Shown here piece by piece: positions 46,118 through 47,013 of a DNA stretch of 64,000 nt. Numbering within the stretch: the first letter of the stretch is position 1; each line of letters opens with the position of its first letter. Source of the DNA: an uncultured Gammaproteobacteria bacterium. Its GTDB lineage: Bacteria; Patescibacteriota; Patescibacteriia; JACRDY01. The position numbers and the translations under genes are program-made. The stretch spans positions 107 to 64,106 of the forward strand of contig CAZJZH010000001.1 of the NCBI GenBank assembly GCA_964550465.1. Reading direction: 5' to 3'. The notes under the pieces are model-generated. The model was given only the letters and a program-made list of their open reading frames with translations, had not been told where the DNA came from and did not search any database.

Positions 46118-46204
46118 GGAGAGGTGGCTGCCCGCGACATGACTGGCGGAGCCAGTCTGTGCGGGTCCGACCACTGCGCCGCAGGCGCAGATGGGCGGAA
46201 GTGG
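46118..46204 (+). repeat. ~87-nt repeat, copy A (shares first 13 nt with tRNA-Ser 5' end)
   Basis: ggagaggtggctgcccgcgacatgactggcggagccagtctgtgcgggtccgaccactgcgccgcaggcgcagatgggcggaagtgg. It contains two perfect 7-bp hairpins (gactggc/gccagtc and ctgcgcc/ggcgcag). Confidence 0.5.
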
Positions 46205-46226
46205 TACTATACAAAATAACAACTAC

Positions 46227-46316
46227 GGAGAGGTGGCTGAGTGGTTGAAGGCGGCAGTCTTGAAAACTGATGTCCGTTTACGCGGACCGTGGGTTCGAAT
46301 CCCACCCTCTCCGCCA
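46227..46316 (+). tRNA. tRNA-Ser (TGA)
   Basis: GGAGAGGTGGCTGAGTGGTTGAAGGCGGCAGTCTTGAAAACTG...GGGTTCGAATCCCACCCTCTCCGCCA. Long variable arm. Anticodon loop cTTGAaa. CCA is encoded. Confidence 0.85.
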
Positions 46317-46440
46317 AATTTGCTCATAAGCAAATTTGGCAGATTAAGGATTAAGATTTAGGATTAAGGGTATGTATTTGTCTTGAGTAAAAGCAAATCT
46401 CCTTAATACTCAACCTTAATCCTACGTCTGATAACAATAC

Positions 46441-46527
46441 GGAGAGGTAGCTGCCCGCGACATGACTGGCGGAGCCAGTCTGTGCGGGTCCGACCACTGC
46501 GCCGCAGGCGCAGATGGGCGGAAGTGG
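46441..46527 (+). repeat. ~87-nt repeat, copy B (1 mismatch to copy A)
   Basis: ggagaggtagctgcccgcgac...gggcggaagtgg. Direct repeat of copy A, 323 bp downstream of it. Confidence 0.5.
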
Positions 46528-46573
46528 AAAAGCACATTAACAATTACGACTATTTTCTTTTTTGCTTAACTAG

Positions 46574-46849
46574 TTGCTATACAGTACATCCACTATGTAC
46601 TATGTATACATCCTAAAAAGTAAGCGGAACGGGAAATTCTACATTGGGCTAACTTGCAATCTACCTCGACGAGTATGGCAACACAATAACGCTCATACCA
46701 AATCAACACTACACGGTATTCCTTGGCAAGTTGTGTATTACGAGGCATATTGCGATAAAAATTTAGCAAGTAAAACTGAATCATTTTACAAAACAAGTCA
46801 AGGTAGAAGGCAAATTAAAAAGAAGTTGCGATTACAAAATAACGATTAA
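46574..46849 (+). CDS. GIY-YIG nuclease superfamily protein (small, YhbQ/UPF0213-like)
   Basis: YVYILKSKRNGKFYIGLTCNLPRRVWQHN is the GIY-YIG motif. The gene is AT-rich relative to the window and its stop codon abuts tRNA-Ser(GCT). Confidence 0.55.
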   Translation: MLYSTSTMYYVYILKSKRNGKFYIGLTCNLPRRVWQHNNAHTKSTLHGIPWQVVYYEAYCDKNLASKTESFYKTSQGRRQIKKKLRLQNND

Positions 46850-46943
46850 GGAGAGGTGGCTGAGTGGTTGAAAGCGGCGGATTGCTAATCCGTTATAGGG
46901 GTATATGCTCCTATCGAGGGTTCGAATCCCTCCCTCTCCGCCA
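46850..46943 (+). tRNA. tRNA-Ser (GCT)
   Basis: GGAGAGGTGGCTGAGTGGTTGAAAGCGGCGGATTGCTAATCCG...GAGGGTTCGAATCCCTCCCTCTCCGCCA. Long variable arm. Anticodon loop tTGCTaa. CCA is encoded. Confidence 0.85.
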
Positions 46944-46969
46944 GTTCATCTCCGCGATGCGGAGTGAAC

Positions 46970-47013
46970 TGGTCCGACCACTGCGCCACAGGCGCAGATG
47001 GGCGGAATGTGTA
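46970..47013 (+). repeat. partial third copy of the ~87-nt repeat (3' half)
   Basis: ctggtccgaccactgcgccacaggcgcagatgggcggaatgtg matches the 3' half of copies A and B with a few mismatches. It lies directly after tRNA-Ser(GCT). Confidence 0.4.

Follow-up and report, generated by a model that had tools for sequence, protein, structure and literature searches.

A minimal GIY-YIG nuclease gene and paired hairpins at a tRNA-Ser locus: a probable homing-type cassette

Results

Architecture of the tRNA-Ser locus

The DNA analysed here is a 64,000-nucleotide stretch of contig CAZJZH010000001.1 (the window), and its subject is a locus on the plus strand in which two intact tRNA-Ser genes, a short gene for a GIY-YIG nuclease and three copies (A, B and C) of a hairpin-bearing repeat lie close together. 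Intact tRNA-Ser(TGA) (46227..46316) and tRNA-Ser(GCT) (46850..46943) were identified by ARAGORN and scored 57.4 and 64.8 bits, respectively, in Rfam. The nuclease gene (46595..46849) encodes 84 amino acids. Its stop codon ends at 46849 and tRNA-Ser(GCT) starts one base further on, in agreement with the first-pass annotation of the window, in which the two had been described as abutting.

The 87-nt copies A (46118-46204) and B (46441-46527) flank tRNA-Ser(TGA) and differ from one another by one mismatch, as had been annotated. A 37-nt core, GGTCCGACCACTGCGCC[G/A]CAGGCGCAGATGGGCGGAA, occurs exactly three times in 64 kb (at 46164, 46487 and 46971) compared with an expectation of 0.00 from shuffled sequences, and its presence in copy C (46971-47007, with one mismatch) bears out the partial third copy reported after tRNA-Ser(GCT). 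The 87-nt unit consists of tRNA-Ser nt 1-13 (GGAGAGGTGGCTG), a 69-nt double-hairpin element (DHE) and tRNA-Ser nt 14-18 (AGTGG). Given that the last 5 nt resume the tRNA where the first 13 nt leave it, the hairpins constitute an insertion within an 18-nt tRNA 5′ fragment. The proposal of a tRNA-derived repeat is therefore correct for 18 of the 87 nt and incorrect for the 69-nt hairpin part, which is a separate element between nt 13 and 14. On this base-by-base comparison, the 87-nt unit is a displaced tRNA-Ser 5′ fragment carrying a precise DHE insertion.

In copy A, the pseudo-tRNA-Ser nt 1-13 (46118..46130) match the 5′ ends of both tRNA-Ser genes exactly. The long DHE that follows (46131..46199) comprises hairpin 1 (46131-46165) and hairpin 2 (46166-46199), with a predicted folding energy of -46.4 kcal/mol, and nt 14-18 (46200..46204) continue the tRNA as GGCTG/AGTGG/TTGAA, at least 28 relatives being alike in this respect. 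Copy B contains an identical DHE (46454..46522) followed by AGTGG (46523..46527, by sequence), and its nt 1-13 (46441..46453), which start GGAGAGGTAGCTG, have one mismatch to the tRNA 5′ end. Copy C (46941..47006) is a DHE at the tRNA 3′ boundary. Its hairpin 2 (46973-47006) has one mismatch to those of A and B, and its hairpin 1′ (46941-46972) begins on the CCA of tRNA-Ser(GCT) and has stems unrelated to those of A and B in an equal layout. The earlier statement that every copy starts as tRNA-Ser nt 1-13 thus applies to A, misses by one base in B and does not apply to C, which has no tRNA-like start and is preceded by a complete tRNA.

In hairpin 1, the shared layout runs from an outer stem through a CA/TG step and a single bulged base to an inner stem with its 3-nt loop. 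The two perfect 7-bp stems described at first pass are real, but each is the core of a longer hairpin (∼15 and 14 bp) in which bulges are conserved. Within the window, the hairpin unit motif was observed in copies A, B and C only. At the Rfam gathering score, the whole window yielded three tRNAs and nothing more, and ARAGORN likewise found only three real tRNAs. When the locus was searched with Rfam 15 at E values up to 10, no match was obtained on the hairpin elements except sub-threshold ones to sX4 and SpF41, both of which overlap the tRNAs too. A known tRNA or Rfam family for the 87-nt repeat was ruled out by these scans. A split or permuted tRNA, a tRNA intron, a retro-element site resembling a primer-binding site, an integron attC site and a telomere-like palindrome were also considered, and were dropped as candidates for which no supporting feature was present.

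The protein matches Pfam PF01541 over residues 1-71 with 50.5 bits (cut-off 22.6; E = 2.6e-13), which confirms the assignment of a GIY-YIG gene. All homologues begin MYYVYIL, and the start is therefore placed at the ATG at 46595 rather than at an upstream TTG. Residues Y5, Y16, G18, R26, H30 and E62 are invariant in a 14-sequence alignment and all occur in the window protein; they include the catalytic-motif residues (the Tyr of GIY, the Tyr-x-Gly of YIG, the Arg and the Glu). A search of the PDB with a family profile returned 1zg2 (BH0048) at 1.7e-12 and 1ywl (EF2693) at 1.4e-8, followed by Slx1 (1e-4 to 2e-3), I-TevI (0.012) and UvrC (0.5). Judged by these profile matches, the 84-residue protein is closer to the Slx1/UPF0213 branch than to I-TevI or UvrC. 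It comprises a single domain, and no invariant Asn follows E62 in the alignment. The Slx1-like branch was described by Dunin-Horkawicz et al. as having a single domain and no conserved C-terminal Asn (PMC1564403). The ORF (open reading frame) has a GC content of 0.353 and a third-position GC content (GC3) of 0.33, compared with a GC content of 0.50 for the window and a GC3 of ∼0.53 for neighbouring genes, consistent with the AT-richness noted at first pass. Among 50,697 phage records, one weak match was the only sign of phage carriage of GIY-YIG relatives.

Directly before tRNA-Ser(TGA), the 17 nt at 46210..46226 (TACAAAATAACAACTAC) agree at 14 of 17 positions with the end of the ORF (46833-46849), whose final bases likewise lie directly before a tRNA. 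This match points to a probable relic of the 3′ end of a lost GIY-YIG ORF, and suggests that unit A once had an ORF and then lost it. A tblastn search for a decayed second GIY-YIG ORF, covering the AT-rich spacer as well as the tail of copy A and the region downstream of copy C, gave only noise. Copies A and B are 99% identical, yet the tRNAs that follow them are different isoacceptors.

Recurrence of the cassette in other genomes

Relatives were collected by a scan of one genome per species, in a collection that does not include the window's own genome and in which the best match had 59% identity. At least 565 places in these representative genomes encode relatives, and the counts given below refer to the best 80 of them, mostly in metagenome-assembled genomes (MAGs) labelled as Patescibacteria (candidate phyla radiation, CPR). 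Individual loci are denoted by L numbers. The ORF ends within 40 nt of the start of a same-strand tRNA in 39 of the 80 loci, and within 120 nt in 45. Serine tRNAs account for 34 of those 39, the others being Tyr, Gln, Cys and Thr. A canonical 30-nt double hairpin, composed of two 15-nt hairpins with the consensus YCNGCC-CRA-GGCNGR and then YCNGCC-TNG-GGCNGR, was found at most 110 nt upstream of the ATG in 32 of the 80 loci, and the long form seen in the window at at least 7 further loci.

The junctions of the short DHEs are informative as to how the elements are placed. In 28 of 46, the flanking bases (9 nt on the left, 5 nt on the right), read without the hairpins, match an unbroken stretch of tRNA with no more than two mismatches; these DHEs sit after tRNA nt 12, 13, 21, 35 or 36, and five more sit after nt 8. 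The insertion positions are loop or junction positions of the cloverleaf, and the DHEs are placed precisely, without duplication of the flanks. A displaced tRNA 3′ end was present 60-270 nt downstream of the intact tRNA at at least 17 loci, and in L016 and L038 this 3′ fragment bears a double hairpin too. A layout of tRNA 5′ fragment with DHE, GIY-YIG ORF and intact tRNA was seen in many unrelated CPR genomes and with various tRNAs. In its fullest form it runs from a 5′ fragment, hairpins and a few nt through the ORF, the intact tRNA and a spacer to a few nt, hairpins and a 3′ fragment.

Two further arrangements were observed. A tandem duplication at L020 (1292-1500) comprises part of the tRNA fragment, the long DHE and the first 24 nt of the ORF, and suggests repeated or aborted insertions at one site. 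Outside the CPR, a mirror arrangement occurs at L059 (1382-1860) in Aequorivita capsosiphonis (Bacteroidota), where the order is intact tRNA-Arg(TCG), terminator, GIY-YIG ORF and a pseudo tRNA-Arg with its middle replaced by the GC hairpin CTGCCTGCCGGCAGGCAG.

The syntenic locus in relatives

A neighbouring 159-residue protein has few homologues, and two of these give loci syntenic with that of the window, L001 and L005. L001 belongs to an AT-rich relative, and its cassette sequences match a Buchananbacteria MAG (L029). It contains two GIY-YIG genes, each immediately 5′ of a tRNA-Ser and each preceded by the first 36 or 12 nt of that tRNA, then by a pair of GC-rich hairpins (3-nt loops) and some further tRNA bases. 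Both genes fall in one protein clade (clade 9; see below), and insertion position and hairpin order differ between them within the one locus. The protein closest to that of the window (67% identity) is encoded in L005, by an ORF upstream of tRNA-Ser(TGA), where the displaced fragment (nt 1-36) contains three hairpin insertions, after nt 9, 21 and 36. Given that the cassettes at this one locus differ in clade or insertion position among three lineages, the arrangement in the window is not one that was conserved from an ancestor in identical form.

Further signs of movement come from the displaced fragments themselves. Those in L038, L085 and L044 differ at many positions from the adjacent intact tRNA, and those in L038 and L085 resemble tRNA-Ser genes of other genomes, which implies that the fragment travelled with the cassette. 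MAGs assigned by label to separate CPR lineages also share related proteins, as in L046 (Saccharibacteria) and L055 (Giovannonibacteria).

Two observations were made in passing on these contigs. Between the two GIY-YIG cassettes of L001 (8659-8746; also in L029), ARAGORN reports a tRNA-Ser with the anticodon ACT, an unusual one with an unmodified A34. In L010 (790-990), which is a variant of the L005-type contig, tRNA-Ser(TGA) is followed downstream by several GC-rich hairpins that differ from one another and have 3-nt loops.

Protein clades and hairpin types

When the proteins were clustered and compared with the type of flank, a perfect partition was obtained. Clade 7 (C-terminus FYKTSQGRRQIKKKLGL), which contains the window protein, L005 and L016-L021, always has long hairpins, and clade 9 (C-terminus FLKSGKGRERIKYLL) always has the short form, with sub-clades that share an insertion position. 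The tRNA-Cys and tRNA-Gln clades have hairpin variants of their own. Clades 4-6 have no double hairpin and are flanked by 16-18-nt terminal inverted repeats.

Since a whole-element MAFFT alignment of the long hairpins was poor, 19 long-hairpin units were aligned singly, taking hairpin 2 together with the reverse complement of hairpin 1. The unit reads TCCGCTCA, inner stem, loop, inner stem, a bulged A and TGAGCGGA. In this alignment, 90% of cells were paired and compensatory changes were present at 10 of 15 pairs, a result reached by 0 of 500 shuffles and compared with ∼35% pairing in slid controls; as the units had been picked for being hairpins, these values demonstrate conserved structure with varying sequence and do not amount to an unbiased test. 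The long DHE has the same fold on either strand, and short DHEs occur in both orientations at one site (L044; L001a versus L001b).

These data bear on the possibility that the repeats are attachment-site (att)-type duplications of an integrase-driven element, or that they arose by simple tandem duplication of the tRNA-Ser region with hairpins present by chance. tRNA genes are classic integration sites, and A and B are near-identical direct repeats, which speaks for such an origin. Nevertheless, the duplicated part is the tRNA 5′ end, is just 18 nt long and is interrupted; no integrase or transposase was found among the ORFs at 43-50 kb; and chance hairpins are excluded by the occurrence of the hairpin family in unrelated genomes with compensatory changes. 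Such an origin is thus extremely improbable, and the first-pass judgement that these are not canonical 3′-end att duplications was sound. An element of the miniature inverted-repeat transposable element or insertion sequence type was rejected on similar grounds, the insertions being without target-site duplication and the same ORFs being without a transposase.

Relatives at other stable-RNA genes

GIY-YIG relatives of clades 4-6 directly adjoin RNase P RNA genes in L031 (130-815) and in L039, L056, L062 and L088 (∼1501-2093), where the RF00010 match starts at or inside the 3′ end of the ORF. Their 16-18-nt flanking inverted repeats, such as CCCCGCACCTGAAATCAC...GTGATTTCAGGTGCGGGG, appear by eye to extend helix P3, and an extended -10-like sequence, TGATAAAAT, lies a few nt before the ATG. 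Other relatives lie at 16S, 23S and tmRNA genes (L086, 13-1713; L092, 550-2570; L074, 31-802, respectively): the first ORF is just past the Rfam match to the small-subunit rRNA body, with the 16S 3′-end motif downstream of it, the second is inside the 23S rRNA gene and the third is 90 nt after the tmRNA gene. Judged by gene neighbourhood, the entire nuclease family is linked with stable-RNA genes. Copies were also seen between pilus genes or in intergenic DNA (L011, 2980-3270; L014, 930-1295), flanked by inverted repeats CCCCCACACCnAATT. These resemble the P3-type repeats of the RNase P group, as if an ectopic copy had kept its old flanks.

Such tight co-location with tRNA genes might indicate a host housekeeping factor, acting in the maintenance of tRNA or other stable-RNA genes or in RNA metabolism and co-transcribed with tRNA-Ser, with the repeats as regulatory sequences or by-products of local duplication. 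Vertical inheritance and a function in repair have indeed been ascribed to bacterial Slx1-like proteins, and a connection with RNA was suggested by one fusion with a tRNA methyltransferase (PMC1564403). A housekeeping function is, however, difficult to reconcile with the foreign base composition of the gene, with two clade 9 cassettes of different insertion position and hairpin order in L001, or with insertions in rRNA, RNase P RNA and intergenic sites. It also leaves aside displaced fragments that mismatch the neighbouring tRNA and the ORF-less relic (copy A) next to a functional tRNA. We regard it as very unlikely.

Transcription signals and remaining features

A sigma-70-like promoter, TTGACA-17-TATACT, is present upstream of copy A (46060..46088; 11 of 12 consensus matches), and similar TTGACx-17-TATAxT motifs were noted by eye upstream of the L001 and L005 cassettes. 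The first downstream intrinsic terminator on the plus strand, a bidirectional hairpin, is predicted at 47122..47153. Given these two signals, copy A, tRNA-Ser(TGA), copy B, the ORF, tRNA-Ser(GCT) and copy C probably form a single transcript. The ORF is preceded by an AT-rich 67-nt leader (46528..46594), the GC content of leader and ORF together (46528-46849) being 0.342.

The AT-rich hairpin reported after tRNA-Ser(TGA) was confirmed, with a stem of 12 rather than 10 bp, since the fold (46313..46340) takes in the GCCA end of the tRNA. A hairpin thus directly follows each tRNA-Ser (46313-46340 and 46941-46972), with its 5′ arm starting in the encoded CCA end, and could influence 3′ maturation of both tRNAs. 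In the adjoining AT-rich segment (46340..46430), the 13-nt sequence AGATTAAGGATTA occurs twice in tandem, and inverted copies form imperfect arms of 30 nt; within the window these repeats occur at this spot only, and no relation to the cassette was detected. No displaced tRNA 3′ fragment was found on the plus strand of the window. On the minus strand, downstream of copy C, TTCGAATCCCT (47076-47086) is an 11-nt match to the T-loop region of tRNA-Ser (p ∼0.005 against shuffles) and may be the relic of an inverted tRNA fragment. A third tRNA gene, tRNA-Arg(GCG) (45427-45501, minus strand), was identified by both ARAGORN and Rfam. PADLOC defence-system models gave no match.

Discussion

The recurrence of the layout, the foreign composition of the gene and the differing cassettes at the syntenic locus all support the suggestion, made at first pass, of an insertion site for a mobile element or homing endonuclease. 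We consider it reasonably likely that a selfish cassette of the homing type, with the gene for an ∼80-residue Slx1-like GIY-YIG nuclease at its core, is present here in two copies, tRNA genes being its target. Copy B, the ORF, tRNA-Ser(GCT) and copy C are apparently an intact cassette, in which copy C is best read as the boundary hairpin. Copy A and tRNA-Ser(TGA) would be a cassette that has lost its ORF and now resembles a solo relic.

Several points weigh against this interpretation. The 84-residue protein is a catalytic domain alone, without the DNA-binding domain of characterised GIY-YIG homing enzymes. The intact tRNA matches the displaced fragment in sequence, a weakness of any homing model, in which this tRNA would have to escape cleavage. 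No pair of empty and filled alleles was recovered, and for close relatives of the window's own hairpin, one metagenome scan gave 2 chance matches in GC-rich coding DNA. In addition, the query alignment was dominated by tRNA-linked members, and the shares counted among the best 80 loci therefore overstate those in the whole family.

A selfish cassette of this kind would lie directly 5′ of an intact tRNA-Ser and be co-transcribed from the tRNA promoter, with RNase P cutting at the tRNA 5′ end and so releasing the mRNA just past its stop codon. On its far side would be the displaced copy of the tRNA 5′ end, broken at a cloverleaf loop position by the lineage-specific DHE. Spread may proceed through a break or nick made by the nuclease and repaired with the tRNA-derived arms as homology. 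These arms could recombine into class II tRNA genes, the 5′ parts of which are nearly identical among isoacceptors. Given that an intact copy of the tRNA is always kept, the host would retain tRNA function and the element would be hard to lose.

The part played by the hairpins is a separate question. They may act in RNA, as a structure in the 5′ untranslated region (UTR) by which the nuclease mRNA is stabilised or regulated while part of the tRNA precursor; they might, for example, block 5′ exonucleases, mark a site of processing or serve in autoregulatory binding. On this view the cassette would remain selfish, and its hairpins would have no part in mobility. The hairpins do lie 7-70 nt upstream of the ATG and within the predicted transcript, their structure is preserved by compensatory changes and conserved bulges, and hairpin type co-varies with protein clade, as expected of a cognate RNA-protein pair. 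G.T mismatches also appear by eye slightly commoner than A.C mismatches on the sense strand. However, DHEs occur downstream of the tRNA as well (copy C; L016, L038, L064 and L081), where no 5′ UTR is possible, both orientations are found at one site, folding is equal on the two strands, and an RNA stabiliser would have no need of precise placement within tRNA-derived sequence. We therefore hold a role confined to RNA to be unlikely.

The co-variation with clade, the two-fold symmetric fold, the occurrence on both sides and in both orientations and the precise placement in tRNA loops together favour a role at the level of DNA. Speculatively, and with more doubt than confidence, the double hairpin may be the cognate DNA structure of a structure-specific, Slx1-like nuclease within the selfish cassette, serving either as a site for binding or strand exchange or to confer “immunity” on displaced fragments by an insertion that disrupts their target sequence. 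A wider proposal, for which our expectation is somewhat lower again, is that the ∼80-residue Slx1-like nuclease and its co-evolving DHE form an unrecognised class of structure-guided mobile element. Such an element would enter stable-RNA genes (tRNA, RNase P RNA, rRNA and tmRNA) at loop positions and, in tRNA genes, make the host dependent on the replacement tRNA, the hairpin substituting for a DNA-binding domain as the site of recognition or strand exchange.

If the cassette interpretation is correct, the smallest GIY-YIG nucleases, long classed as housekeeping repair proteins, include a large selfish family in CPR bacteria. An essential gene that cannot splice could then be invaded by an element that supplies a spare copy and abandons the old pieces. 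This would also account for the stray tRNA fragments and the GC-rich hairpins beside CPR tRNA genes, which can confuse annotation and assembly, and the protein-hairpin pair would be one in which an 80-residue enzyme may be targeted through the structure of DNA instead of through a binding domain. The finding would gain weight should the hairpin prove to guide the nuclease.

In the literature we found no account of tRNA-linked GIY-YIG cassettes or hairpins in bacteria, although coverage was incomplete and an earlier description elsewhere is possible. The locus is apparently one case of a widespread and undescribed variant of the free-standing homing-endonuclease theme. The closest relatives of solved structure are the UPF0213/YhbQ-type Slx1-like proteins (1zg2 and 1ywl), which are likewise minimal, single-domain GIY-YIG proteins but are regarded as vertically inherited repair proteins, with no association with tRNA genes or hairpins described (PMC1564403). 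Classical GIY-YIG homing endonucleases (I-TevI, I-BmoI and Seg) have two domains, the C-terminal of which binds DNA (PMC3664794). The window protein has no such domain and would therefore not be filed among them, despite apparently similar behaviour: its gene, like theirs, appears to lie in or beside its target and bears signs of horizontal spread.

A precedent for a GIY-YIG gene embedded among tRNA genes is SegB of phage T4, a free-standing homing endonuclease of the T4 tRNA cluster. According to its abstract, SegB has a 27-bp recognition site that includes the conserved T-psi-C stem-loop motif of tRNA, and spreads itself and neighbouring tRNA genes (PMC2330249). That abstract does not mention a partial tRNA duplication or a double hairpin (PMC2330249). 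SegB is, moreover, a full-size homologue of homing endonucleases from a phage, unlike the 84-residue window protein of the Slx1/UPF0213 branch.

For Allomyces mitochondrial DNA, Paquin, Laforest and Lang (1994/2000) reportedly described how an endonuclease ORF invaded atp6, bringing a replacement for part of the gene and leaving the displaced part as a pseudo-fragment. Allomyces mitochondria also contain GC-rich two-hairpin elements which are inserted cleanly, without flanking duplications (PMC2800124, where the 2000 paper is cited). The DHEs are similarly short, GC-rich pairs of adjacent hairpins without target-site duplication. In Allomyces, however, the setting is a eukaryotic organelle, the target (atp6) encodes a protein and the hairpins are dispersed through the genome, whereas in the window only three copies were seen over 64 kb, each of them within the tRNA-Ser locus, and hairpin type tracks the nuclease clade; the two are likened by description and not by sequence.

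A free-standing nuclease gene beside its target is also a feature of F-CphI, which is said to take part in collaborative homing with the psbA intron of a cyanophage (Zeng, Bonocora and Shub, 2009). In both systems a separate insertion interrupts the sequence concerned, namely the recognition site of F-CphI and the tRNA fragment in the window. The interrupter of the F-CphI site is a self-splicing intron in a functional gene; that of the window is a non-splicing hairpin in a non-functional duplicate.

The nearest parallel in bacterial group and protein superfamily comes from CPR rRNA genes, in which GIY-YIG ORFs were reported in insertions at the tops or bases of stem-loops that are not group I or group II introns, and for which homing was doubted (PMC11270868). 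L086 and L092 are of that type. The report makes no mention of tRNA genes, hairpin elements or target duplications (PMC11270868), and the tRNA-linked architecture described here adds to it.

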